Shown: one piece after another, positions 1 through 12,783 of the stretch
Layout: every line of letters starts with the position of its first letter
Position numbering within the stretch: the stretch's first letter is position 1
Origin: a virus
Reading direction: 5' to 3' (one strand)
Virus record (IMG/VR): IMGVR_UViG_3300042898_004347
Location: 64,001 to 128,000 of that record
DNA length: 64,000 bases
Program-made: the position numbers and the translations under genes
The notes under the pieces: generated by a model
The model's database searches: none
What the model was told of the DNA's origin: nothing
What the model saw: the letters and a program-made list of their open reading frames with translations, nothing else

Positions 1-222
1 AGATGGTCTCGCTTTTATGACGAGTGTAACACTTAGCGAGAATCCGTGTTATCTACTCGATCACAGTTTTTAGGCTGCGAGTGGCATTTCTTCGGCGAAA
101 CCGAAGAAGTTGCTGAGGGCTTTATTAATGCCGTTTAACTTTTTACCAGTTTTTAAAAGGTGTCCGGAGAACCTTGCTTGCTTACTATAAGTCTATTACT
201 GAGTCGAATCCAGTACAGGCCC
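1..222 (-). ncRNA. ssrA: tmRNA (5' part; 3' end lies outside the window)
   Basis: Minus strand begins GGGCCTGTACTGGATTCGAC, the typical tmRNA 5' TLD. Tag ORF 132->70 reads GINKALSNFFGFAEEMPLAA-stop and follows an A-rich ...AAGTTAAAC resume context. Confidence 0.93.
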
Positions 223-317
223 ATAAATTTAAAAGAACGAAATTCAATTGTTTAATCCGTCCACGTTCACCGCGTAGCCCAAATCCCTTTTTGAAAAAGG
301 ATACAGTTAAACAAAAT

Positions 318-391
318 TGGATGCTGGGGATGGAATTGAACCATCAGCTCCGCGTTATGAGCGCGACGAGTTACCGTTACTCTACCCGGCA
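318..391 (-). tRNA. tRNA-Met(CAT), probably initiator type
   Basis: Cloverleaf, anticodon loop CTCATAA, GTTCAAT T-loop, encoded CCA. Confidence 0.85.
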
Positions 392-400
392 ATAAAATGA

Positions 401-805
401 ATTTGGGAGGGTTAATGATTACCTCCATCTAACAATTGTGTTTTCAGTTATTCAGTCATATGGTGCCGTCGCACCTTAATAGTCCGCTTGTCATTGTATT
501 TCAGGCTTACAAGACTATACCTCTGGTTGCTTAGGTTGGCCGACCCAAGTTTTCAGCGTAGTACCTTACTTACTTACACATTGTAGAACTGAGTGATGTT
601 CTTCACACCACCCATGCGTTAGCCCCATTAGAAAGGCTTTCTTCCGCCACAAAAATTTCTCTCATGTTACGGCAACGTCAGCATACAGTCCCGACCAGTG
701 CCTATTCCACTATTATCGAGATTTTACAACTGTTGCAGACCGTGGTGACAATAGGTTCGTGAAACCAGTTGCCGCATGAGAGTCCAAGGTGATCAAACCT
801 TGGAA
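401..805 (-). ncRNA. Large structured ncRNA, GOLLD-like candidate
   Basis: About 400 nt without an ORF. Nested inverted repeats: CTCTCATG..CGGCAAC 659-676 with 768-782, CCAAGGT/ACCTTGG 784-803, GGTGC/GCACC 462-475. Has its own promoter and boxA-like element and sits next to tRNAs. Confidence 0.65.
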
Positions 806-838
806 AGTATTTAAAAGAACGAAATTGACTATGGTACA

Positions 839-867
839 ATCATACACATGTCACATCAAAAGTAAAC
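839..867 (-). promoter_or_regulatory. T4-type early promoter GTTTAC-N17-TATGAT
   Basis: Minus strand GTTTAC (867-862) and TATGAT (844-839). Confidence 0.7.
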
Positions 868-879
868 AACAAAATGTGA

Positions 880-1503
880 TTATGGCATATATGTTTTACA
901 TTCATCTAATGATAAAATTATCTTTAAATTGGGCATAAGTTTTTTAATAACATCTAATTTTGTTTTTTGAACATTCGCCGCGTGCGGATTTTTAGGATCG
1001 AGATATATGTCATGATCCGGCAGATAAAAATCAGGAAAATAATTATGAGTTCTACCATCAATCATTACATATGAAATAGGAACTTTGGGACGAATCCAAT
1101 TGATTCCTATTTCATCCAACCGCATTGCTAGAATTTCTTCCCAGGATGAATCTAAAGTGACAATAGTTCCATCTTTCTTTGTATATTTTCTTATAGATCT
1201 AACTAAACGTCTATGTTTTGATGCTAGTGCTTTTTGACTCATTAATGCCTTACTTTCAGGGCTATGAGTTTTTCCTAAATTTGGACTTGAATAATCGACA
1301 TTATCATATTTCCCATCAGCATGAGCTTTTTTAATTCCAGCAATACGCTTTGCTTTAGCTTCAGGAGTGCACATTTGAGTGCAGTTGTTACTCATTTGAT
1401 ACGAAGATCGTTTTGGGTTTTCTTTACACCACCTACTATGATTTGCTTTATTAGCAGTTGATAGACCTTCAAAATCCTTTTTACAGTATTTACATTTAAA
1501 CAT
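880..1503 (-). CDS. Free-standing homing endonuclease (Zn-finger + NUMOD3 + PD-(D/E)XK/TnsA-like domain)
   Basis: CKYC..H..C N-terminus, GKTHSPESKALMS NUMOD3-like motif, DSSWE...YFPDFYLP...YLDPKN catalytic motif; AT-rich. Confidence 0.8.
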   Translation of the reverse strand: MFKCKYCKKDFEGLSTANKANHSRWCKENPKRSSYQMSNNCTQMCTPEAKAKRIAGIKKAHADGKYDNVDYSSPNLGKTHSPESKALMSQKALASKHRRLVRSIRKYTKKDGTIVTLDSSWEEILAMRLDEIGINWIRPKVPISYVMIDGRTHNYFPDFYLPDHDIYLDPKNPHAANVQKTKLDVIKKLMPNLKIILSLDECKTYMP

Positions 1504-1516
1504 ATTTTATAGAATT

Positions 1517-1591
1517 TGGTGCGTCTACCAAGACTCGAACTTGGAACAGGAGCTTAGAAGACTCTTATGATAGCCGTTTCACCATAGACGC
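1517..1591 (-). tRNA. tRNA-Arg(TCT)
   Basis: Cloverleaf, loop CTTCTAA, CCA end. Confidence 0.88.
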
Positions 1592-1600
1592 TTATATGTT

Positions 1601-1608
1601 TATTTATA
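1601..1608 (-). promoter_or_regulatory. T4 late promoter TATAAATA
   Basis: Exact gp55 consensus upstream of tRNA-Arg and the endonuclease. Confidence 0.7.
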
Positions 1609-1613
1609 ACAAT

Positions 1614-1648
1614 GAAGATTTCTGTCCTATCCGTTGAACGATCGAGGC
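1614..1648 (-). pseudogene. 5' half of a tRNA-Arg, truncated in the anticodon loop
   Basis: GCCTCGATCGTTCAACGGATAGGACAGAAATCTTC: acceptor 5' strand, D-arm and anticodon stem ending CT-TC, then unrelated sequence. Confidence 0.8.
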
Positions 1649-1652
1649 AGAA

Positions 1653-1727
1653 TGGAGCGGAAAAAGAGACTCGAACTCTCAACATCTTCGTTGGCAACGA
1701 AGTGCTCTACCATTGAGCTATTTCCGC
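1653..1727 (-). tRNA. tRNA-Gly(GCC)
   Basis: GCGGAAA acceptor, loop TTGCCAA, TCCA end. Confidence 0.93.
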
Positions 1728-1748
1728 GTGGAGTATAAATACATTCCT

Positions 1749-2168
1749 ATGTACCAATATTCTTGCAAAATTAATAAAGTGATTGACGGCGATACTGTTG
1801 AGATCGACCTCGACCTCGGATTCAATATCGTTCTTGCTGGCCAACGAGTCAGAATGGTTGGAGTAGACACTCCTGAGTCCCGTACTGCTGATAAAGAAGA
1901 AAAGGCTCGAGGCCTCTTATCAAAGAAGAAACTTGCTGAAAAACTTCCAGCGGGTTCCTATCAAAAGATCAATACTCAGAAACCCGGAGCAAATGACGAT
2001 AAGTTTGGCCGTATTCTCGGTATCTTCATCCTGGAAGATGGAACAAATGTTAACGAGTGGCTCATCGAGAACAATTACGCGGTAAAATATCTTGGCGAGA
2101 ATAAAGAACTCGTCCAAGAAGCCCATGCAGCAAATAAGAAAATTCTTATTCGCCGTGGCGAACTTTAA
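1749..2168 (+). CDS. Thermonuclease (SNase-like) family nuclease
   Basis: VIDGDT, VRMVGVDTPE, DKFGRIL motifs. True start is probably MYQY at 1749, after TATAAATA at 1734-1741. Confidence 0.9.
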   Translation: MYQYSCKINKVIDGDTVEIDLDLGFNIVLAGQRVRMVGVDTPESRTADKEEKARGLLSKKKLAEKLPAGSYQKINTQKPGANDDKFGRILGIFILEDGTNVNEWLIENNYAVKYLGENKELVQEAHAANKKILIRRGEL

Positions 2169-2171
2169 GCC

Positions 2172-2420
2172 TTAGTAGCCCACAGATACCATGCGGCAAG
2201 ATGTCGCAGCGGTAATTGTAGAAAGGGGTGACTTTTCGAGATAGAGAACTTCACCCGGAGCAATCGTCACTGTGGTCGTGGCGGCGTCTGCAGTCGTAAC
2301 CGTAAGAAGTACCGCTGTGCCGTTGTTATTATAAACGCGTACGAGTGAGGCGGATCCGATAGTTGATGCTGTTGAAACTGCAGCGTCTGTTCCCTGAAGA
2401 TTGAGAATTGTTGAAATCAT
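2172..2420 (-). CDS. Small late protein (possibly virion)
   Basis: Thr/Ala-rich beta-type ORF; TATAAATA at 2446-2453. Confidence 0.7.
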   Translation of the reverse strand: MISTILNLQGTDAAVSTASTIGSASLVRVYNNNGTAVLLTVTTADAATTTVTIAPGEVLYLEKSPLSTITAATSCRMVSVGY

Positions 2421-2457
2421 TGAATTTTAGGATTAAGGTGTAATCTATTTATATGAA

Positions 2458-2535
2458 TGGTACCCACGGTGGGAGTCGAACCCACAGTTGAACACATTTT
2501 AAGTGTGTTGTGTCTACCAATTCCACCACGAGGGC
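2458..2535 (-). tRNA. tRNA-Leu(TAA), short variable region
   Basis: GTGGAATTGGTAGACAC Leu-type D-arm, loop CTTAAAA. Confidence 0.88.
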
Positions 2536-2545
2536 ATAACATAAA

Positions 2546-2620
2546 TGGTACCACTACGGGGAATCGAACCCCGATTACTTGGATGAAAACCAAGTGTCCT
2601 AACCGTTAGACGATAGCGGC
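2546..2620 (-). tRNA. tRNA-Glu(TTC)
   Basis: Cloverleaf, loop TTTTCAT, CCA. Confidence 0.92.
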
Positions 2621-2625
2621 AAAAT

Positions 2626-2699
2626 TGGCTCCCCGACCAGGTTTCGAACCTAGACTAGATGAGTCAAAGTCATCTGTGCTACCATTACACAATCAGGGA
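2626..2699 (-). tRNA. tRNA-Gln(TTG)
   Basis: Cloverleaf, loop CTTTGAC, GCCA. Confidence 0.92.
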
Positions 2700-2702
2700 A
2701 AA

Positions 2703-2779
2703 TGGTGGACCCGGTGGGATTTTAACCCACGATCTAGGGATTATGAGTCCCTTGCTTTAGGACACTAAGCTACAAGTCC
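2703..2779 (-). tRNA. tRNA-CAT, probably Ile2 (lysidine type)
   Basis: Loop CTCATAA; body resembles ileX-type tRNAs; atypical T-loop TTAAAAT. Confidence 0.75.
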
Positions 2780-2785
2780 TTAAAA

Positions 2786-2860
2786 TGGCTGGCAAAGTAG
2801 GACTCGAACCTACAACCCTCGCATTAACAGTGCGATGCTCTGCCATTGAGCTATATGCCA
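2786..2860 (-). tRNA. tRNA-Asn(GTT)
   Basis: Loop CTGTTAA, GCCA. Confidence 0.92.
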
Positions 2861-2864
2861 AAAA

Positions 2865-3095
2865 TTATCCGTCGTTGCCAATGGCACTTACGGGACAGCC
2901 CTCGAGGGCTTCCATACACATGTCAATGCCTGCTTGTGTTGTGGGTTGAGTATGTACATATGAAAAGCCGCCATCTTCTTCACGAGTAAAGAAGTCTGGA
3001 GCAGTTTCACGGCAAAGGTCGCAGTCGATACACTGAGTGTCGACATAAAACTTCCCTGCTGCGTTCTGTGAATATCTATCCGTATTGTTTGCCAT
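2865..3095 (-). CDS. Monocluster ferredoxin
   Basis: CIDCDLC...CP motif. Start MANN at 3095, because the upstream in-frame part overlaps tRNA-Pro. Confidence 0.92.
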   Translation of the reverse strand: MANNTDRYSQNAAGKFYVDTQCIDCDLCRETAPDFFTREEDGGFSYVHTQPTTQAGIDMCMEALEGCPVSAIGNDG

Positions 3096-3117
3096 AATGT
3101 ATTTACGATTTGATAAT

Positions 3118-3194
3118 TGGTCGGGGCGATAGGATTCGAACCTACGACCTTCTGGTCCCAAACCAGACGCTCTACCAAGCTGAGCTACACCCCG
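3118..3194 (-). tRNA. tRNA-Pro(TGG)
   Basis: CGGGGTG acceptor, loop TTTGGGA. Confidence 0.94.
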
Positions 3195-3199
3195 AGAAA

Positions 3200-3319
3200 T
3201 TACTTCTTCAGTTTAGACTGAACGACTTCAACTGCAGCATCAACCTTTGCTTTGTTTTTGCGAGCAACAAGAAGACCAGCAACGAAACCGACAATGAGTG
3301 CGAGGAGTAATGAGAACAT
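3200..3319 (-). CDS. 39-aa single-TM late protein (MFSLLLALIVGFVAGLLVARKNK...)
   Basis: Hand translation; hydrophobic N-terminus and basic tail; TATAAATA at 3353-3360. Confidence 0.7.
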   Translation of the reverse strand: MFSLLLALIVGFVAGLLVARKNKAKVDAAVEVVQSKLKK

Positions 3320-3367
3320 ATGTTTATTGAGTTGAGGTTAACCGTACATATCTATTTATATGTAAAA

Positions 3368-3445
3368 TGGCGGGATGGACGGGACTCGAACCCGCGACCT
3401 TCTGCGTGACAGGCAGACGCTCTAAACCAGCTGAGCTACCACCCC
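3368..3445 (-). tRNA. tRNA-Asp(GTC)
   Basis: Loop CTGTCAC, GCCA. Confidence 0.94.
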
Positions 3446-3529
3446 TAAAGTTTCACACAGCCATTATTGCCATTGATGTAAATCAAGAGGACTACTGTGT
3501 ATGTTAAATTATTTGAATAGATGTAGCTT

Positions 3530-3902
3530 TGCTTTATATGACCACACTTCAGCGAGTTTCTTATTTACGCATAAGCTCCAACACGTTTAATGTTTCCCAA
3601 TAAACGTACTGTTATGAACTCAGAGGCTTTTCGTTACTTCCATGTTTTTCCGCTGACGGTTAGACCCCGTGCTCGTACCGAAGATGGAAACAATCTTCTA
3701 CATTCCGAGCTGCTATTCAAAATTGGATCCTTCTGCCATACAAGTCTTCCAGAACATTTCCAGAAGATGAATGCACTTGTATGCGTTACACTCTTAAACC
3801 CCCTAAAGGAACGCAACCTTTTAAATATGTGATTGCCCAGTTTCTTAGCAACATGGAGCTTTACCTTAGCGCCGGCGAATGTAACGGTCTGCATAAACAC
3901 AG
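3530..3902 (-). ncRNA. Large structured ncRNA of unknown class
   Basis: Terminal 5'/3' helix plus multiple internal helices (see findings); lies between tRNA-Trp and tRNA-Asp. Confidence 0.55.
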
Positions 3903-3909
3903 AAGAAAT

Positions 3910-3984
3910 TGGCACGGATGGAGGGAATCGCACCCTCATAAGGCAGTTTTGGAGACTGCTGCACTACTAATGTACCACATCCGT
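3910..3984 (-). tRNA. tRNA-Trp(CCA)
   Basis: Loop CTCCAAA; atypical D and T loops. Confidence 0.85.
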
Positions 3985-4066
3985 AAAAATTAAAGCAGCG
4001 GTAACCTAATCCGCGGATGGACGAACCGATTCCAGGGTTCAAACATGACCCATACTTTAAAATAAA

Positions 4067-4144
4067 TGGGGCGATCAACGGGGCTTGAACCCGTAACCCC
4101 GAAAATCACAATCTCGTGCTCTGGCCAATTGAGCTATGATCGCC
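4067..4144 (-). tRNA. tRNA-His(GTG)
   Basis: Loop TTGTGAT, G-1:C73 pair, CCCA end. Confidence 0.9.
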
Positions 4145-4149
4145 GTAAA

Positions 4150-4226
4150 TGGAGCGCCAGACAGGGATCGAACCTGCATGTGACTGTTTTGCAAACAGAA
4201 GTTTAGCCTTTCAACAACACTGGCGC
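4150..4226 (-). tRNA. tRNA-Cys(GCA)
   Basis: Loop TTGCAAA, U73 discriminator. Confidence 0.85.
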
Positions 4227-4232
4227 TTAAAA

Positions 4233-4308
4233 TGGTAGTAGCGGTGGGAATTGAACCCACATAAAAGAGCTTATGAAACTCTTGCCTTGACCAATCGACC
4301 TCGCTACT
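4233..4308 (-). tRNA. tRNA-Met(CAT), probably elongator
   Basis: Loop TTCATAA, CCA. Confidence 0.82.
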
Positions 4309-4431
4309 GTAAATTAATTATTCGGTCGGAACTTCAATCGAAGGTCTTATCGACCCGCGCGGCTCACTAAGCCGTCCTTCACGTCGTTAAGTGGTACGAC
4401 AACACGGACTTCTACCGTTAACCGAATAAAA

Positions 4432-4507
4432 TGGTGGGAGCTTCTGGTATCGATCCAGATTCTTGCCGTCTTCAGCGGCACGTGAGCACCTGCTTCACCA
4501 AACTCCC
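4432..4507 (-). tRNA. tRNA-Phe(GAA)
   Basis: Loop CTGAAGA, CCA. Confidence 0.85.
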
Positions 4508-4512
4508 TAAAG

Positions 4513-4588
4513 TGGTAGACCCGGAAGGATTCGAACCTTCAATACAACGTTCGTAGCGTTGCGTGATAATCCGTTTCACTACGGGTCT
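4513..4588 (-). tRNA. tRNA-Arg(ACG)
   Basis: Loop CTACGAA, CCA. Confidence 0.92.
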
Positions 4589-4695
4589 ATAAAAATGAGT
4601 AGTACCGATTGTTCCGAGCACGGTTACCTGTTGTTCAACATACTGAATGATAACACCGACTCCTGTTTTACGAACAACTGGATTTCTACTCAAAA

Positions 4696-4781
4696 TGGTG
4701 GGCACGCTTGGACTCGAACCAAGGGTTATCCGAAGAGGGGACATTTACAGTGTCCTGCAATAGCCGCTATGCGACGCGCCC
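4696..4781 (-). tRNA. tRNA-Tyr(GTA)
   Basis: Loop CTGTAAA, long variable arm. Confidence 0.92.
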
Positions 4782-4837
4782 GAAAAATTGTCATTTGAGT
4801 CAACCTCAATTTCGCCAATGACGTGGCGTTTGCAAAA

Positions 4838-4912
4838 TGGAGCGGTATCCGGGTAACGATCCCAGAACTCAAGTTTGGAAAACTCGCGTGTATCCATTAA
4901 CACCTATACCGC
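4838..4912 (-). tRNA. tRNA-Gly(TCC)
   Basis: Loop TTTCCAA, TCCA. Confidence 0.88.
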
Positions 4913-4917
4913 AAAAC

Positions 4918-4991
4918 TGGTGCCTTCGACAAGAATCGAACTTGTGACTAGCGCTTATCAAGCGCTGGTTATACCGTTTAACTACAAAGGC
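4918..4991 (-). tRNA. tRNA-Ile(GAT)
   Basis: Loop TTGATAA; 5' end overlaps the stop codon of the upstream endonuclease. Confidence 0.9.
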
Positions 4992-5583
4992 TTTTAATAT
5001 ATTCCACATTTATATCTTTATTTAAAAGAATGATTATTTTTACAGAATTCTGTTTTGCTGCTAATTGTATTTTTTCTGCATCCAAAATGGCTTTATAATC
5101 GTTTTTAGGATCTAAATATAAATCATATTCTGTTAGATAGAAATCAGCAAAATATCTTTTATTGTTGTATTTTAATGATTTCGGTCGAATCCATTTTATA
5201 TTCAATTCATTTAATAATGAACTACATCTTAATTCATATGTACTCTGTAGTGTAACTTCATTACCATATGAATCATTTACTTTAAATTTTTTACTTCTTC
5301 CAGCCAAAGGTTGGTAACCACCTAAACCTCGATCTTTTGCTATTTTTGATAATAGTGATTTAGTTTCTTGAGTATGCGCAGTTCCTGTACCGGGACCAGT
5401 TTTTGGTCTAAAACATCTAACATCGGACAATACAGTTTTACCTTTATTCCATGCAACCCTCTCTACTTTAGGTTTAATGACTTTAGGTTTATCGTGCCAC
5501 TTTAAATGACGATTGAATGCGAAAAGCGATACGGCATTTCCACATTTAGGACAAATAGATGTTGTTGTTTTACCTTTGGGCAT
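4978..5583 (-). CDS. Free-standing homing endonuclease (Zn-finger + NUMOD3 + PD-(D/E)XK), paralog of 880-1503
   Basis: CPKC..H..H, AWNKG, HTQETK, QSTYE...YFADFYL...YLDPKN. Start MPKG at 5583 after TATAAATA at 5589-5596; AT-rich. Confidence 0.8.
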   Translation of the reverse strand: MPKGKTTTSICPKCGNAVSLFAFNRHLKWHDKPKVIKPKVERVAWNKGKTVLSDVRCFRPKTGPGTGTAHTQETKSLLSKIAKDRGLGGYQPLAGRSKKFKVNDSYGNEVTLQSTYELRCSSLLNELNIKWIRPKSLKYNNKRYFADFYLTEYDLYLDPKNDYKAILDAEKIQLAAKQNSVKIIILLNKDINVEYIKSLCS

Positions 5584-5601
5584 TAATCTATTTATAGAGG
5601 T

Positions 5602-5634
5602 AGACGATGCTCTAACCAACTGAGCTACTAGACC
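5602..5634 (-). pseudogene. 5' half tRNA (Ile-like), truncated at the anticodon loop
   Basis: GGTCTAGTAGCTCAGTTGGTTAGAGCATCGTCT followed directly by the late promoter; no complementary 3' acceptor strand downstream. Confidence 0.8.
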
Positions 5635-5639
5635 GAAAA

Positions 5640-5729
5640 TGGCGGAAATAGAAGGATTCGAACCTTCGGGGCTTTTGAGGACCCGAGACTTTAGCAAAGT
5701 CTTGCCTTAAACCACTCGGCCATATTTCC
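5640..5729 (-). tRNA. tRNA-Ser(GCT)
   Basis: Loop TTGCTAA, long variable arm. Confidence 0.93.
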
Positions 5730-5734
5730 TAAAT

Positions 5735-5824
5735 TGGAGGAAGGGGTGGGATTCGAACCCACGGTCGTTTTTAGGCGACTCAAGTTTTCAAGACTAGCGC
5801 CTTAAACCACTCAGCCACCCTTCC
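5735..5824 (-). tRNA. tRNA-Ser(TGA)
   Basis: Loop CTTGAAA, long variable arm. Confidence 0.93.
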
Positions 5825-5830
5825 TTAAAA

Positions 5831-5906
5831 TGGAGCCCTCGGACGGGATCGAACCGACGACAACCAGTTTACAAAACTGGTGCTCTACCAACTGAGCTAC
5901 AAGGGC
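5831..5906 (-). tRNA. tRNA-Thr(TGT)
   Basis: Loop TTTGTAA, TCCA. Confidence 0.93.
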
Positions 5907-6224
5907 GAAATTGAATCCCACCATGCACCTAGAAGCATTGCTGCTTTCACGGATGAACCCGACATTCAGTGCAGGTAGGAAAATTGGAAAGGTAACGATA
6001 GCTCAGTGTTCTGGCTGCATATCGGTGCAGACGGCATTTCGTTTTTATCTAACACTTAGACCTTAAAAGAGCCCGGCAATTTATTTAAAGACGTCCGGGG
6101 CTCGTCTATTTTTATTTGAAAAAAGAACTAATTTTACCCCTCTCAGCTTGTGCTGGTTTGGATACCCGTTATCGGACGTTTGGACTCCTTAAAGCCGGAG
6201 TCTGGCAGTGAAACTGAAAGTGAT

Positions 6225-6257
6225 AAAAAAACCTCTGAGCTTTATGGCCCAGAGGTT
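6225..6257 (-). terminator. Attenuator terminator upstream of the tRNA array
   Basis: AACCTCTGGGC-cataaa-GCTCAGAGGTT followed by a U tract. Confidence 0.85.
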
Positions 6258-6290
6258 AAAGATAATTTCGATTTTAGATCGACCTTATTT

Positions 6291-6383
6291 TTAACCCCTG
6301 TAACCTGTTCCGCGTACGGACCAGAACAAGCCACAGCTATGTGGATTTTGTTCTGTATCTGATTTAATCTGTACCGTAAGCAT
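6291..6383 (-). CDS. Putative attenuator leader peptide MLTVQIKSDTEQNPHSCGLFWSVRGTGYRG
   Basis: Hand translation, 30 codons; its 3' end CAGGGGTTAAA is complementary to the 5' arm of the terminator. Confidence 0.75.
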   Translation of the reverse strand: MLTVQIKSDTEQNPHSCGLFWSVRGTGYRG

Positions 6384-6401
6384 TTGAAGTGTTTGTTGAT
6401 T

Positions 6402-6443
6402 TATTTATAGGACTATCATACTTAGTTTTGGTACAAAGTAAAC
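6402..6443 (-). promoter_or_regulatory. Tandem early (GTTTAC-N17-TATGAT) and late (TATAAATA) promoters of the leader/tRNA operon
   Basis: GTTTAC 6443-6438, TATGAT 6420-6415, TATAAATA 6409-6402. Confidence 0.75.
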
Positions 6444-6455
6444 AACAAAGCGCAA

Positions 6456-7169
6456 TTAGTGCATAAAAAGATATGGTTTCCATTCCTCGCGGATACCCAT
6501 ATCCTCGGGGATTTGAACGCCGATCTGGACACGGTTCTTTGGAACCACTTCCTTACCATTAATGTCAAAATACGGGAAAATGTTGTCCTTGGCAGCATTA
6601 CAGTCGCGGCAGGCAAGAACAAGGTTGAACCCGTCATTGGTACCACCCTTTGACTTGGGATGCACGTGATCCTTGGTGGCAACGCAGAAAGGTATCTTTT
6701 TGAGGCAGTACTGACAGGTGCCCTTATAGATGCTGTAAAGACTCCGAAGTGAGGTTTGCTGACCACGACGAACAGTATGTCCGAAGTGAGTAGTGCAGAC
6801 AACGATGGTCGGAATTGCCCATTGCTTTTCTTCGCCACTGATACGGTCCGGAGCGGAACGCAGACATGGCTGGTTGTCAAAGAGTTCTATGGTGTTCTTC
6901 GACCACGAATAACCGTCATTGTCCTCACGACCGTCCCATGGAATTGTGTTACCACTCGCGTCGATACCGTGAGCCCTACCATTCATCATGTGACGCATGC
7001 ACGCACGGGCCGTGAAGAAGGCATAGGCTTGGTAGGAACCGTCGAGCACCAGTGTGGTACGCGCAGAAGCATCAACAGGAGTCAATACATTAACCTGTAA
7101 TTGATTTAACAACTGAAGTGAAGCCTTTTCGTGGTACGTTGTATTTGCGAGCATTAGAGTAAGATTCAC
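6456..7169 (-). CDS. HNH endonuclease (McrA/HNH_5-like); start uncertain
   Basis: CQYC...TKDHVHPKSKGG...NLVLACRDCN. Confidence 0.88.
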   Translation of the reverse strand: MNLTLMLANTTYHEKASLQLLNQLQVNVLTPVDASARTTLVLDGSYQAYAFFTARACMRHMMNGRAHGIDASGNTIPWDGREDNDGYSWSKNTIELFDNQPCLRSAPDRISGEEKQWAIPTIVVCTTHFGHTVRRGQQTSLRSLYSIYKGTCQYCLKKIPFCVATKDHVHPKSKGGTNDGFNLVLACRDCNAAKDNIFPYFDINGKEVVPKNRVQIGVQIPEDMGIREEWKPYLFMH

Positions 7170-7314
7170 CGTTGAGCACTTGGCAGTGACCAGCGGTTTT
7201 GTGGTCCCAGATCATGATACCAAAGCGGTTGACCTTGGTCTCACGTGGGACAAAGTTGGGGTCGGGTAGAATACCAGACCGAATAAGACTTTGAATGATT
7301 TTATCGTTGGACAT
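7090..7314 (-). CDS. Hypothetical protein
   Basis: Tightly packed ORF starting MSND. Confidence 0.5.
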   Translation of the reverse strand: MSNDKIIQSLIRSGILPDPNFVPRETKVNRFGIMIWDHKTAGHCQVLNGESYSNARKYNVPRKGFTSVVKSITG

Positions 7315-7316
7315 TT

Positions 7317-7511
7317 TTAGAAAGTAGACATACAAACACCCCAAGCTGGTGCGTTTTCATCTTTTTTAAAACCTGGGTAACCTGGATAAACAGGATGGAT
7401 ACGCACAACTGTATCATAGTTAGCATACTCAGGATTGTAGGCTACTGCTTCGACGTCTCCATGTTTGTCCTTGACAGCATTGAGTTCGTTAATTAATTCG
7501 GAGATTCTCAT
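7317..7511 (-). CDS. Hypothetical protein
   Basis: MRISELINEL..KHGD N-terminus, common in small phage ORFs. Confidence 0.65.
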   Translation of the reverse strand: MRISELINELNAVKDKHGDVEAVAYNPEYANYDTVVRIHPVYPGYPGFKKDENAPAWGVCMSTF

Positions 7512-7517
7512 AAAATT

Positions 7518-7757
7518 TTAAGAACCTTGAAAAGAAGTTTCTAAATGAAGGGCATCAAAGTAACCCTTGCGCCATGCATCCATAAGTTTCATTAATTTCT
7601 TAGGCTCTTTGCGATACTCTTTCACGAATGCGTGGAAGTGAATGTCGCATTGCGAAGCAGCCATGATTCCGTTTTGGTAAGCCTCTTCGCCAAGTTTGAC
7701 AACGAACTTTAGATCCTGAGCGTAATAGTATCGTTTCATTTGTTTTGCGGTATTCAT
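7518..7757 (-). CDS. Hypothetical early protein
   Basis: ORF directly downstream of an early promoter. Confidence 0.65.
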   Translation of the reverse strand: MNTAKQMKRYYYAQDLKFVVKLGEEAYQNGIMAASQCDIHFHAFVKEYRKEPKKLMKLMDAWRKGYFDALHLETSFQGS

Positions 7758-7823
7758 TATGATATAATCCTAAACTAAATTGGCTAAAAGTAAATTAATT
7801 AGATTGTCCTAAGTTGTTGATTA

Positions 7824-8069
7824 TCACTTGTTGTCCAGCTTGTTCATGGTCACCCACTTGGCGCGGTTGATCAGAAAGCGGACGCGAAGATCATTTTGAG
7901 GGTCACCCATAAGATGTTGAACATCAGAGAGAAGGGACATCACAATGTCCTGACCTGCAACGCGGTATTCATTAACAAATTCGTACCAACGGTTAATATC
8001 GGCGACGCCAAACTGTTCCATGTCGGTAACAGTTGATTCATACTTTTTAAAGGTTGGGTTGTTTAACAT
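7824..8069 (-). CDS. Hypothetical early protein
   Basis: ORF directly downstream of an early promoter. Confidence 0.65.
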   Translation of the reverse strand: MLNNPTFKKYESTVTDMEQFGVADINRWYEFVNEYRVAGQDIVMSLLSDVQHLMGDPQNDLRVRFLINRAKWVTMNKLDNK

Positions 8070-8177
8070 GCTACTATCCTACAACAAACCGCCAAAAAGT
8101 AAACAAATACGATTTACCTAAGCTGTTGATTACAAACAGCCGCTTAAAATAACCCCAGGTTATTGAATACCAATAAC

Positions 8178-8798
8178 TTACTCGATGCCTTTTGTGGCTT
8201 TTTTCTTCTTCTTTTGAAGAATCTTTCTCCGAGCGTTGAGTCGATTCACAACCTCATTACCAGTCATCCAAATATCTTTGTTATCAAGAATTGATTGAAT
8301 CTCATCGGGCTTCAAAAAGTCCGAATAAATTTCCTGGAGTAATCCTTCAGACCATTTGCGTTCATGCTTGATCTGGTCGATCATCTCTCCGCCTTTACCC
8401 ATTGTGCCACCCGAATAATTGTGGAACATAAACATTGAATGAGCAGAGATTTCAAAGCTATCTGACATTAAAAAGACGATAGTTGCTGCAGACATACAGG
8501 CGCCCTCAACGGAGGCCATGACTGGAGCTTTGCATTCACGGATCACCCGCATGAACTGAATTGCTGACCATAGATCGCCACCCGAAGAATTGATGTAGAT
8601 TTTCACGAGATCATTTGGAGGACAATGACGAATCTGATTAAACCACTCGGTGTATTTCGAAGCTTCTTCAATTTGTCCCACGAGATAATACTCATGGATA
8701 TGCCCGAGGGGTTTATCTGTAAAGGCACATGTGGGTTTTTTTTCCTGATTTAGCATATCGAATAGGGGATGATCTAATTTTTTAACATCAGTCTTCAT
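8178..8798 (-). CDS. ClpP-like protease
   Basis: IYINSSGG, GACMSAAT (Ser), FMFHN (His), DIWMT (Asp). Confidence 0.88.
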   Translation of the reverse strand: MKTDVKKLDHPLFDMLNQEKKPTCAFTDKPLGHIHEYYLVGQIEEASKYTEWFNQIRHCPPNDLVKIYINSSGGDLWSAIQFMRVIRECKAPVMASVEGACMSAATIVFLMSDSFEISAHSMFMFHNYSGGTMGKGGEMIDQIKHERKWSEGLLQEIYSDFLKPDEIQSILDNKDIWMTGNEVVNRLNARRKILQKKKKKATKGIE

Positions 8799-8810
8799 TG
8801 GTAGTATGTA

Positions 8811-9488
8811 TCAGTTTCCGAAGATTTTTCTGCGCTTATATTCCTGGATGGTTTCTAGGAGTGGTTTGACCCAATTATCACGGTGTTCTTTAAACACTTT
8901 GGGTTCATTGTCATCGATTCCCATAATTGTCACGATGTTTGTAATTGGAAGTTTTGTGCGTTCCTCAAACATAATCGCATAGGCAGTTTCCTGCATGAAG
9001 TATGTATGAATATCTTCCTTCTCTTTGACTCGTCGAGATGTTTTGATGTCAATAATTGACCGGACACCGTCAAAGTCAGCAACAAGATCCACACGACCTG
9101 CAAGGCCCAGATGATCTGAATACAAAGGTTTTTCCTGCAGAATAATGTTATTGACTCTGGATTCCAGAATCGGACGAATCGTACTAAACATCTGCCAGAT
9201 ATGAGGGAGGAAGTTTTTAGATTCAAGGACTTCGTTATTTAGAAATCTCTCAGCAACCTTATGAATCTCTTCCCCACGGGCACACGCCCGCCGGGAGATA
9301 CGATTCGCCTCTTCTTCACCCACCTTCTGACGCCATTCACGAATACTATTCTCGCTTAGAATCCCAAGAACCGTGGTAATCGATGGATACTTAGGTCCCC
9401 TCGGAGTAGCATACGTGCGTCCACTTTCAAGGGTTTCGCACACGAGATCATTGTATCCTAGATCTATGGGATTATGAATAAATGTCAT
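8811..9488 (-). CDS. PD-(D/E)XK exonuclease (phoH-linked, T4-like)
   Basis: YPSITTVL, RGEEIH, AGRVD, IIDIKTS, YFMQ..AY. Confidence 0.9.
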   Translation of the reverse strand: MTFIHNPIDLGYNDLVCETLESGRTYATPRGPKYPSITTVLGILSENSIREWRQKVGEEEANRISRRACARGEEIHKVAERFLNNEVLESKNFLPHIWQMFSTIRPILESRVNNIILQEKPLYSDHLGLAGRVDLVADFDGVRSIIDIKTSRRVKEKEDIHTYFMQETAYAIMFEERTKLPITNIVTIMGIDDNEPKVFKEHRDNWVKPLLETIQEYKRRKIFGN

Positions 9489-9661
9489 TCGTCTAGGTCT
9501 TCAAAGTCTTCAAGAATATCTCCAGCATCAATTGGTCCATTGACCCGATAGTATTGTTCATCCTCATTGTTATTTTTTGATGGATGAACATTTTTCTTTC
9601 GCTGATGCTTTTGAGCTTCACGATCAAATCGATTTTGTTTTTCTTCTCGGTTCCTATTCAT
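9485..9661 (-). CDS. Hypothetical protein (58 aa)
   Basis: Hand translation MNRNREEK...; fills the phoH-exonuclease gap with overlapping start/stop. Confidence 0.55.
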   Translation of the reverse strand: MNRNREEKQNRFDREAQKHQRKKNVHPSKNNNEDEQYYRVNGPIDAGDILEDFEDLDE

Positions 9662-10377
9662 TATTCGTTCTTTTTTAAGAATTCTTTTGTCATAATATAA
9701 TCTCGCACAATACCCGATCGAACAATATCCTGCCAGGTAAATTCAACAGAATAGAAATATTTCATCTGAGAGATGATCTTCATGAAGTCAATGATACCGC
9801 TTTTATCCTTGGATTTCTCCAGGTCTGATTGGTAGTAATCACCACACATGATGAACCGGCAATCCTCACCGAGACGGGTAATGATTGAATCTAATTCGTG
9901 AAAAGTAAGATTCTGCATTTCATCCACAATTACGATGGATTTACGAAGAGTAATACCACGGATAAATGAAGTAGCAAGGAATTCAACTGTGCCTTTGGCC
10001 ACAAGTTTATTCCATGCCATCTTATCTCCAAAGAGTTCTGATAGAATCGAAATGTACGGAGACAGATATGTTGCTTCCTTTTCCGCACGGTCGCCCGGGA
10101 GGAATCCAATATCACGTGTAGGAACGATGGAACGTACAATAATGATTTTTTCATATGGAGATTCCCCCTTCATGACTTCTTCAAGGGCAAGGTATAGCGC
10201 CATAAACGTTTTACCAGTACCAGCTGCACCAGAAAGGCAGAGATGATTTTTTTTCTTATAGGCAGCAAACACTTTCTTTTGAGTTAGCGTGAGAGGTTCA
10301 ATTTGCTTTAGATTCTCGTAGCGAACCGAAGGAATTGACGCAATAATTTGTTTTTGTTTAGATTTTTGTTTAGCCAT
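9661..10377 (-). CDS. phoH: PhoH-like ATPase
   Basis: GAAGTGKT, IGFLPG, RGIT, DEMQN, GDYYQSDL. Confidence 0.95.
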   Translation of the reverse strand: MAKQKSKQKQIIASIPSVRYENLKQIEPLTLTQKKVFAAYKKKNHLCLSGAAGTGKTFMALYLALEEVMKGESPYEKIIIVRSIVPTRDIGFLPGDRAEKEATYLSPYISILSELFGDKMAWNKLVAKGTVEFLATSFIRGITLRKSIVIVDEMQNLTFHELDSIITRLGEDCRFIMCGDYYQSDLEKSKDKSGIIDFMKIISQMKYFYSVEFTWQDIVRSGIVRDYIMTKEFLKKNE

Positions 10378-10381
10378 GAGA

Positions 10382-10642
10382 TTATTTTGTCCGAATTGTG
10401 TTGCCTCTTCCTGAGCCTCCCTTTATTTTCTGCTGGACTTCTTTCCAACCGTCACCCCCACGCGAGTACATGGATTTAAAGCCAGAATAGCTCAGTTGCA
10501 CTGCAGTGACTCCACGTAGGACTGCTCCAACCTTATGGCAGGATGGGCATTCATCGATCGTAGGTTTATCTCGATCAGCCATGGGCACCAATTGAGTGAA
10601 CTCGTGGTGGCATTCTTTACAATGATAGTCGTAGTTTGGCAT
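10382..10642 (-). CDS. FmdB-family zinc-ribbon protein
   Basis: MPNYDYHCKEC...CPSC. Confidence 0.85.
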   Translation of the reverse strand: MPNYDYHCKECHHEFTQLVPMADRDKPTIDECPSCHKVGAVLRGVTAVQLSYSGFKSMYSRGGDGWKEVQQKIKGGSGRGNTIRTK

Positions 10643-10643
10643 T

Positions 10644-11219
10644 TTATTTTGTAACGAACCAAGAAGGCGTGTTTCGTTTGGTCCAGACCATTTTGAATCT
10701 GCCTTGTTTTGTTTGATAGAATTCTTGATACGACCGCACAGGATCATCTGGATACATGCATTCCGGAGTTGATTTCATTGCAAGTTTGAACTGAGTCATT
10801 GGTACATCCGGAATGTTTTCTGGCGGATCTATGAGATCTTCTAGCAATAATGTTTCACTACTATGGATCTTACCATAACGGTAGGTGTATTCGTTGCAGA
10901 GCGCCTCAAAGTGCTGATGATGCCATTCATAGTTCTCAACGCTTTCCATGGTCCATACAGTACATGGATGATTCATATGAACCGCTTTGTAGAATTTGTC
11001 GTCTTTTTCGGGATTCGGAAGTAGCCATTCCTTACCTTTGCGCCAACGTGCAGGAAGAGAACCCGCAACATATTTCTTTGTTTCGCGCATCGTACCATCG
11101 AGTAGGCGATGCGCAGTCGAAAGCATCTGAGCTGATTCGACGATCATTTTGACCACGTGCTTATCGCATTGCAATTGCGCAGCAATCACGGGGTTTTTAT
11201 CCAGGACAAATATGTTCAT
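10644..11219 (-). CDS. Pyrimidine-dimer glycosylase-like conserved phage protein
   Basis: MNIFVLD..P..AA..QCDKHVVKMIVESAQMLSTAH, NHPC. Confidence 0.75.
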   Translation of the reverse strand: MNIFVLDKNPVIAAQLQCDKHVVKMIVESAQMLSTAHRLLDGTMRETKKYVAGSLPARWRKGKEWLLPNPEKDDKFYKAVHMNHPCTVWTMESVENYEWHHQHFEALCNEYTYRYGKIHSSETLLLEDLIDPPENIPDVPMTQFKLAMKSTPECMYPDDPVRSYQEFYQTKQGRFKMVWTKRNTPSWFVTK

Positions 11220-11503
11220 AATCTAATGGTGTATATCCTACACCTACTTCAACGAAATGTAAATCTTTTTATTATGCCACCTGAAGTTCGGGTTCTTCAA
11301 CCTGAAGAGATTCAATCACTCCTTGCAGAAATTTCTGTTTTCTCTGCATTCCCGTAATTGATGTAATATTGCCTTCTTTCTGGAGACGCTGGATGTAATA
11401 ATCCAGCTCTTGATAATCTTGTTTAAGTCGGTCCAGCTGTGAGATGATCATTTTTTTCTATAATTAATATAGAAGATACCGTGTTGGTTCTTTCAGGAAA
11501 TTG

Positions 11504-11938
11504 TTATTTAAGAATAAGGCCGGGCCAGGTCTGCTTTACTAAATCTCGAGTAATTCCCGGATAAAGAGTTTCTAGTTTCTTATCCTTCATTGCAAGGATC
11601 ATGTCAGCATCTTTAGGATGAATAGTCTCTAGGATCTGTAGAAACATGTTTTCTCTCTTTGCCGGTTTCATTGCATCGCCCTGGCCACCTTTTACAAAAT
11701 AGTGGAATATTTTAATCTTTAATCTAAGAGAGGAAGAAGAATGCCCGGATTTGGAAAGTCTTCCGTCATATGTGGGTTTTCCTAATGGTAGATTCCATTG
11801 AATGCAATCGTCAAAAGATCCTCGAAGGACATCGCGCAATTCAAGTGAATCGTGCTGTTTCAGGAAAGCAGTTTTCGACTCTGCACTTTCCATTGCTGAA
11901 ACCTTCTGCAGTATTTCGTGTACGAGTAATGAGATCAT
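11504..11938 (-). CDS. Conserved T4-like hypothetical protein (rnh-linked)
   Basis: KRENMFLQILETIHPKDA motif; synteny. Confidence 0.75.
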   Translation of the reverse strand: MISLLVHEILQKVSAMESAESKTAFLKQHDSLELRDVLRGSFDDCIQWNLPLGKPTYDGRLSKSGHSSSSLRLKIKIFHYFVKGGQGDAMKPAKRENMFLQILETIHPKDADMILAMKDKKLETLYPGITRDLVKQTWPGLILK

Positions 11939-12783
11939 TGTGAATTAAATTCTTCAGCGCATTCAATCAATTGTGTGCAGCGTTTAGAGATCAGATAATT
12001 AAGGATATTTGAATTCGGTTTGGCCGAATCAAATGTATTTATAATAGAGTCCTTCTTGTCCTGGGGAACTTTGCTCAGATCAATAAGAGCGGTATTGCGC
12101 TGGAAATTGCGGTATGTTTCTTGATTCATTACCGTATCCAGGGAAGAACGTGAGGCATACCATGCATCAACTTTTTTAGCAGAAACTGGCTTTTGGCGAA
12201 TCTTATCCACGAACGTATTGTCTGGAGAAAGAATGTTTGGAATACCGTCTCCACTATCTCCACGAACCGTATGGTCAAACAGATATTTGACTGGATCCTT
12301 CTCCTTGATGAAAGACTTAATCATAGGTGAGAACTGTTTTACATTGGAATACTGTTGAAGCTGGATGAAATCTTTATCCGAAGAAATGATCATCACTGGC
12401 TCGTGTTGACCAAAGTTCTGTGTCTTTTCTGTAAGAGTTCCAATGATGTCATCAGCCTCAATGTTGTTAATGTGAACAACCTTGTATGGAAAATTCTCTG
12501 CAATTTCATTGCGCACCAGAGTTAGAATGCGAAAGAATTCAGTCCAATCAAGACCGCTATCGTCTCGGTTTGCCTTTCGGTGAGCCTTGTACTGAGGATA
12601 GATCTGCTTGCGCCACGAACCTCCGTCACAGGCAATAACCATCTGACCGTATTCCTTACGATGCTTGAGGTTATACATCCTCAAGGAGTTTAGAATCATG
12701 TGGCGTATCAAATGCTCTGAAACATCCATCTTCTGTGTGAAGATGTTGGAAATTGCAATACCCGAATAGTCGACTAAGATCAT
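11935..12783 (-). CDS. rnh: RNase H / 5'-3' exonuclease
   Basis: EADDII, SSDKDFIQL, GDSGDGIPN. Confidence 0.93.
   Translation of the reverse strand: MILVDYSGIAISNIFTQKMDVSEHLIRHMILNSLRMYNLKHRKEYGQMVIACDGGSWRKQIYPQYKAHRKANRDDSGLDWTEFFRILTLVRNEIAENFPYKVVHINNIEADDIIGTLTEKTQNFGQHEPVMIISSDKDFIQLQQYSNVKQFSPMIKSFIKEKDPVKYLFDHTVRGDSGDGIPNILSPDNTFVDKIRQKPVSAKKVDAWYASRSSLDTVMNQETYRNFQRNTALIDLSKVPQDKKDSIINTFDSAKPNSNILNYLISKRCTQLIECAEEFNSQ

Follow-up and report, generated by a model that had tools for sequence, protein, structure and literature searches.

A probable ribosome-controlled attenuator ahead of the tRNA array of a T4-like phage

The tRNA array of a T4-like phage is preceded by a leader that probably works as a ribosome-controlled transcription attenuator, coupling transcription of the array to the speed of translation. 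The window analysed here is a stretch of 64,000 nucleotides from a virus record (IMG/VR IMGVR_UViG_3300042898_004347, positions 64,001 to 128,000). On its minus strand, which carries all the features described below, a promoter is followed by a 30-codon open reading frame (ORF), a terminator and then the tRNA array. As in ribosome-mediated attenuators generally, a short leader ORF thus lies between promoter and genes, and the terminator has a mutually exclusive antiterminator. We refer to this leader locus as W and to loci of other phages by L-numbers.

The virus record is linear, 140 kb long, 43% GC and an estimated 84% complete, and its genes are T4-like. Its PhoH protein is nearest to those of cyanophages and of Caulobacter phage Cr30 (∼55%), and a similarity search against cultured phages returned chance matches only. 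The best clue to the host is a 4Fe-4S ferredoxin encoded within the tRNA array (2865-3095), which is 71-78% identical to Opitutales proteins. Because of this identity, and because a boxA-like word downstream of the leader matches Opitutales rRNA leaders, the host is probably an Opitutales verrucomicrobe. ARAGORN predicted 23 tRNAs in the genome, to which a weak Cys tRNA and a tmRNA are added, all on the minus strand. Within the window the array (318..5906) holds 21 of the ARAGORN tRNAs, beginning with Thr(TGT) at 5906, and the tRNA-Cys(GCA) at 4155-4224, which is short or degenerate (Rfam 32 bits) and was missed by ARAGORN. The array runs on leftward past the window with the tmRNA, Val and Ala; the phage-encoded tmRNA (window 1-222, genome 63854-64222) has a boxA-like word ahead of it at 239, and the Ala tRNA stands behind a separate promoter. 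The first-pass annotation had predicted Leu(TAG), Val(TAC) and Lys(TTT) tRNAs to the left of the window. Val(TAC) was present and the other two were not found in this incomplete genome, although the array of relative L003 has both and that of L001 has Leu(TAG). Two endonuclease-like ORFs also lie in the array, one at 4978-5586 with a late-type promoter of its own and no Pfam match, the other at 880-1503 with weak matches to Phage_endo_I and NUMOD3. An HNH gene (6456-7169) adjoins the array and is its stable neighbour across the clade. Other structured non-coding stretches were seen in the array at 396-860, 4320-4420 and 4790-4835, with a weak match to manA RNA at 396-675 (19 bits, cut-off 55).

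The first-pass annotation had described early and late promoters, the short ORF, a hairpin within it and the terminator, and each of these was recovered in place. The host-sigma (early-type) promoter (6415..6442; -35 TTTACT, -10 TATGAT) uses a motif that is repeated ahead of other phage genes and is found in the same place in relatives. A T4-late-type promoter, TATAAATA (6402..6409), would by analogy with T4 be active as well; copies of this word number 24 on the coding strand and 6 on the opposite strand. The leader ORF (6291..6383) ends in a TAA stop, and its start region is A/C-rich and has no Shine-Dalgarno sequence. This had been raised as a caveat and is normal for the phage, in which 14 of 102 long ORFs have a Shine-Dalgarno sequence (background 10%). 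The hairpin within the ORF (6307..6381, core 6355-6322; -23.5 kcal/mol, z -3.1) is a candidate RNA polymerase pause or synchronising hairpin.

At the end of the ORF begins the longest inverted repeat of the region, with 23-nt arms that are 83% complementary. Its 5' strand (6300-6278), comprising the last codons and the stop, pairs with 6272-6250 to form the antiterminator (6250..6300) that had been proposed from the sequence. As 6272-6250 includes the 5' arm of the intrinsic terminator (6225..6257), the two structures are mutually exclusive. The terminator, with an 11-bp stem (6257-6230) and a U-run, was the top terminator-like match within positions 1-12000. Folded in isolation, the 23-bp antiterminator has an energy of -20.5 kcal/mol and the terminator one of -17.2 kcal/mol. 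The leader as a whole (6402-6200) is strongly structured (fold z -5.4), with none of 200 shuffles as stable. A search of Rfam matched the leader to no leader family and gave no family for three downstream elements. As the energy of the 13-nt duplex by itself failed to set this terminator apart from others in the genome, we relied on covariation and on the position of the stop.

Relatives were gathered through the neighbouring HNH gene and one DNA pattern, giving 13 leader families. W and nine families were reached through the HNH gene, blind to leader sequence; L016, L019 and L023 were retrieved with a stop-containing pattern and say nothing on the position of the stop. The short ORF with covarying terminator and antiterminator that had been expected in related phages was found in all 13 families, with peptides of 17-35 codons that are unalignable. 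In the common layout, the start lies at most ∼30 nt from the promoter and the stop 50-62 nt ahead of the U-run. The best partner of the terminator 5' arm is located at the stop or within ∼10 nt of it in 13/13 families; the helices over the stop in L007 and L468 were read individually, the automatic anchor being out of register there, and MAFFT misaligns the antiterminator 5' strand across families. For W and the nine blind families, the probability that a promoter-near start stays open to the antiterminator stop by chance was 0.04-0.47 per family, with a product of 5e-10 if independent; the 13 families share ancestry. Core antiterminator pairs are held in 95% of cases within families and 80% across them, which none of 20,000 permutations reached, a statistic that shared ancestry inflates. 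Covariation includes A-U/U-A/G-C/C-G swaps at one column and U-A/C-G at another. In L001-L003 and L461, the 30-codon frame and its length are intact, with silent and replacement changes and no frameshifts.

Several relatives have lost the leader. In L463, L464, L471 and L550, the whole cassette is missing and the promoter is joined straight to the downstream RNA, and in L256 and L474 the ORF is reduced to a stub and the terminator is gone. An intact terminator without the ORF was found nowhere in the clade. As six relatives lose ORF and terminator jointly, ORF, antiterminator and terminator behave as one removable cassette, with an assembly artefact possible in single cases. In L467 (10850-12600), the leader stop is TAG and the array includes an amber suppressor tRNA (anticodon CUA); the switch there could involve read-through of this stop.

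Wider searches returned little. The exact ORF-hairpin pattern had no match in viral contigs, and a tRNA-Thr pattern and two loose patterns retrieved mostly unrelated or chance loci. Leader DNA gave six short chance matches to unrelated sequence in 151 Opitutales genomes, and pattern matches in four host genomes were at control level. Among unrelated phages, a short ORF and a terminator were seen ahead of the tRNA arrays of L319, L246, L238, L077, L138, L098 and L052. Some of these peptides are visibly enriched in the amino acids carried by the downstream tRNAs (L319, Pro/Gln/His/Lys; L246, Asn/Gln/His/Trp/Ser; L238, His/Asn/Ile), and those of L077, L138, L098 and L052 have 18-20 residue types.

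We propose that RNA polymerase would start ∼13-25 nt ahead of the AUG with a ribosome trailing it. A timely ribosome on the last codons or on the stop would cover the antiterminator's 5' strand, letting the terminator fold 62 nt downstream, and transcription would stop short of the tRNAs. Upon delay at any of codons 2-26, or if no ribosome loads, the antiterminator would fold first and polymerase would pass the boxA-like word into the array. A nascent-RNA model, which considers the RNA just before the 3' arm of the terminator emerges, is consistent with this scheme. In W, the modelled antiterminator forms as long as the ribosomal A site lies within codons 2-26, and its formation is blocked once the ribosome has moved to about codon 27 or beyond, up to the stop; in 11 of the 13 families it is blocked at the stop (all but L465 and L475). 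Ordinary terminators gave ∼0.5-0.7 sequestration in 5/6 cases in the same model. Full-length equilibrium folding favoured the terminator in 5/13 families and was ambiguous for early stalls in W. For W RNA free of ribosomes, the predicted fold is the antiterminator (P(terminator) 0.0), and failed initiation is therefore also predicted to give read-through.

The first-pass annotation had held that a stall on almost any tRNA opens the array, with a caveat for the last codons. The model is in line with both: W is predicted to sense 17 amino acids, among them Trp, Cys, His and Phe, and to fail over the last 4-5 codons, so that Tyr, Arg(AGG), Ala and internal Met would go unsensed. The Trp codon always falls within the sensed part. 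Since nearly all amino acids are represented in the ORF, each about once, the array would be induced if almost any tRNA became scarce, uncharged or cleaved, or if ribosomes slowed in general, and the net effect would be a feedback loop on the tRNA pool. Such a switch cannot separate tRNA loss from other causes of ribosome slowing.

Leader-peptide attenuators such as trpL, hisL, leuL, thrL, the ilvGMEDA leader and pheM contain tandem codons for one to three amino acids and control enzymes or synthetases. In these classical leaders, the stop lies upstream of the antiterminator, and an untranslated leader terminates by default. W shares with trpL/hisL-type leaders the short ORF, the in-ORF hairpin, the competition of an antiterminator with an intrinsic terminator and, under the proposed scheme, the principle that ribosome position decides. 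Unlike the trp, his, leu and thr leaders, it has no tandem control codons, its predicted default is read-through and it matches no leader family in Rfam, whereas L007 and some other relatives do fit the classical pattern of termination by default. T-box riboswitches antiterminate on uncharged tRNA by binding one tRNA directly and need no ORF; W has no T-box match in Rfam, and its antiterminator helix is continuous, without a UGGN bulge. Among 19 Opitutales genomes, no Trp leader was found ahead of trpE, and PMC13323073 offered no usable statement on coupling in Verrucomicrobiota.

By mechanism, the closest precedent, and an experimentally tested one, is the whiB7/wblC uORF of mycobacteria, where efficient translation leads to termination, stalling leads to formation of the antiterminator, and loss of the start codon increases read-through (10.1101/2023.06.02.543512). 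The M. smegmatis whiB7 uORF contains 19 of the 20 amino acids and does not sense absent residues; the uORF is Ala-rich and differs in sequence between species (10.1101/2023.06.02.543512). As this uORF senses the amino acids that it encodes, pan-amino-acid sensing itself is not new as a mechanism. The phage leader is like it in near-complete amino-acid coverage and in read-through by default. It differs in that the target is a set of tRNA genes and not a host transcription factor, in that it lies in a phage rather than upstream of whiB7/wblC in Actinobacteria, in its length of 17-35 codons and in the absence of Ala from W.

The composition of the leader peptides bears on what the switch would sense. 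The W peptide contains 19 of the 20 amino acids, Ala being the one missing, and its ORF has 27 distinct codons in 30 and no tandem repeats, in agreement with the earlier count. Such diversity is indeed improbable: the chance of at least 19 residue types per 30 codons was 0.003 in windows of the phage proteome, 0.005 by base composition and 0.013 for the shuffled ORF. The ORF had also been said to hold a codon for every elongator tRNA of the array but Ile2. This stood for 20 of the 21 non-CAU tRNA types (random-codon null 12.2) and failed for Ala(TGC), which has no codon, and for elongator Met, which has no internal one. When synonymous codons of the same peptide were resampled, 17.0 types were covered (P 0.014), but this test was significant in just 3 of 11 loci. 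Matching of leader to array suggests a loose rather than a strict correspondence. Ala is missing from the peptide of W, where the Ala tRNA has a promoter to itself, whereas in L461 the array includes an Ala tRNA and codon 4 of the leader specifies Ala. In L020, which is related to L019, the leader carries codons for Ala and Phe, but no tRNAs for these were found in the examined stretch of its array.

High diversity had also been expected of relatives. Summed over the 13 families, residue types came to 213 versus 186 in shuffles (z 5.2), and to 182 versus 160 (z 4.4) when only the sensed part was counted; nine neighbour-anchored relatives, with W left out, still gave z 3.3. In contrast, the most conservative subset, which takes the weakest leader per terminator type and omits W, gave z 1.3 (P 0.13). 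L019 has all 20 residues in 28 codons, with four residue types confined to its unsensed tail, and several families have 11-16 types. His and Met are under-represented across families, and Trp is present in 11 of 13 versus 1.8 expected, with P 0.007 even in conservative subsets. On balance, we consider selection for residue breadth to be real, but soft. We give roughly even chances to the fuller proposal, in which selection would maintain in phages a test gene with nearly all amino acids, serving as a feedback sensor for the entire tRNA pool. Loss of any tRNA to starvation or to a host anticodon nuclease would then switch on the array, making it an inducible counter-defence in which the content of the leader would track the tRNAs behind it.

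The strongest competitor, which we regard as improbable yet worth weighing, is an attenuator coupled to translation whose signal is the stage of infection or a general slowing of ribosomes (host shut-off, antibiotics, ribosome toxins). Here single codons would add little stalling, and mixed composition would be a by-product of an unconstrained, structure-bound ORF. Read-through as the ribosome-free default would fit this reading, as would the failure of the conservative diversity test, the presence of amino acids only once or twice each, unlike tandem control codons, and the loss of residue types in close relatives (Asp in L001, L003 and L461; His in L002; Cys and Phe in L010). Yet diversity and Trp presence exceed same-base shuffles, the latter also in the conservative subsets, most families show lower diversity in the two alternative frames of the leader DNA, and whiB7 needs only single codons. 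Considerably less probable is a switch tuned to few signals, as whiB7 is to Ala, namely Trp, Cys and the Thr, Ser and Gln codons ACA, TCA and CAA. These three codons dominate the first ten leader codons; across families Thr (42 versus 25.5 expected), Ser (40 versus 25) and Gln (25 versus 13) are enriched, Cys is present in 10/13 families as Trp is in 11/13, and most arrays open with Thr(TGT), usually followed by Ser(TGA). However, an unstructured start without a Shine-Dalgarno sequence also needs A/C-rich 5' codons, Trp is missing in two families, and W, L019, L012, L023 and L006 have 18-20 residue types. Least probable, by a small step, is an untranslated ORF. A protein or small RNA, of the phage or of the host, would then switch the hairpins, or the terminator would act as a constitutive damper that leaks, with the short transcript being a small RNA. 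In favour of this reading are the missing Shine-Dalgarno sequence, the strongly folded ORF region, a weak Rfam match of PyrR type (23.8 bits, cut-off 54) and the relatives that do without the cassette, but most genes of this phage also lack a Shine-Dalgarno sequence, substitutions never break the frame, and the open frame ending at the helix is conserved with no binding-site-like conservation 5' of the helix.

If the leader is a ribosome-controlled attenuator, its reach would be graded along the array. Because internal promoters bypass the switch (late-type at 5596, 3360, 2453 and 1608; early-type at 866 and at genome position 63328), the array partly escapes it; the switch would always rule the first tRNAs, but the others chiefly in early infection. 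Between terminator and array lie further elements. Element A (6136..6209), directly 3' of the terminator, has several hairpins and no Rfam match; across 18 variants its stems vary while its unpaired motifs are invariant. It is also kept in leaderless relatives (L256, L463, L471, L474, L550 and others) and occurs by itself in L254. Its position, between terminator and boxA-like word or, where the cassette is missing, between promoter and boxA-like word, suggests a processive-antitermination or processing element. The boxA-like word (6120..6129), noted in the first-pass annotation, matches the GTTCTTT box of rRNA leaders and spacers in five Opitutales genomes and is found again after the two other promoters of the RNA cluster. 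This is consistent with rRNA-type antitermination that would take polymerase through the long untranslated array. After it, the element at 6069..6107 is a candidate H-type pseudoknot: in 14 variants compared by eye, its two stems overlap and covary, and Rfam has no match for it. Two further non-tRNA elements ahead of tRNA-Thr (6064-5989 and 5981-5916), likewise unmatched in Rfam, are modules that are present or absent in L002, L003, L006, L010, L012 and L470.

Known tRNA arrays offer parallels in regulation and in role. In Anabaena, translational stress induces the long tRNA array of the trn operon (PMC8421152), which lies on a bacterial plasmid under the repressor TrcR, a protein acting at initiation (PMC8421152, PMC10272220); attenuation, leader and terminator are not mentioned for it in PMC8421152. 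The phage array would likewise come on when translation is impaired, but through an attenuator and not a protein repressor at initiation. In the tRNA-rich region of T5/SP15, phage-encoded tRNAs stand in for host tRNAs that defence nucleases have cleaved, and their expression level matters, which was put down to a strong promoter; PMC11555353 describes no leader or attenuator there. Our literature search, in which subscription journals were thinly covered, found no account of attenuation ahead of tRNA genes. The switch logic is known; its target, tRNA genes, and the phage setting are new as far as that search reaches.

The reason for tRNA arrays in phages has long been in question, with codon bias on one side and replacement of tRNAs destroyed by defence or infection on the other. 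The leader described here precedes tRNA genes, whose products are the very molecules whose lack would stall its translation, and an array switched on by slowed decoding would favour replacement on demand. If the proposal is true, leader-peptide attenuation would reach beyond protein genes to tRNA genes and beyond cells to phages, and these leaders would provide a compact natural sensor of tRNA depletion.
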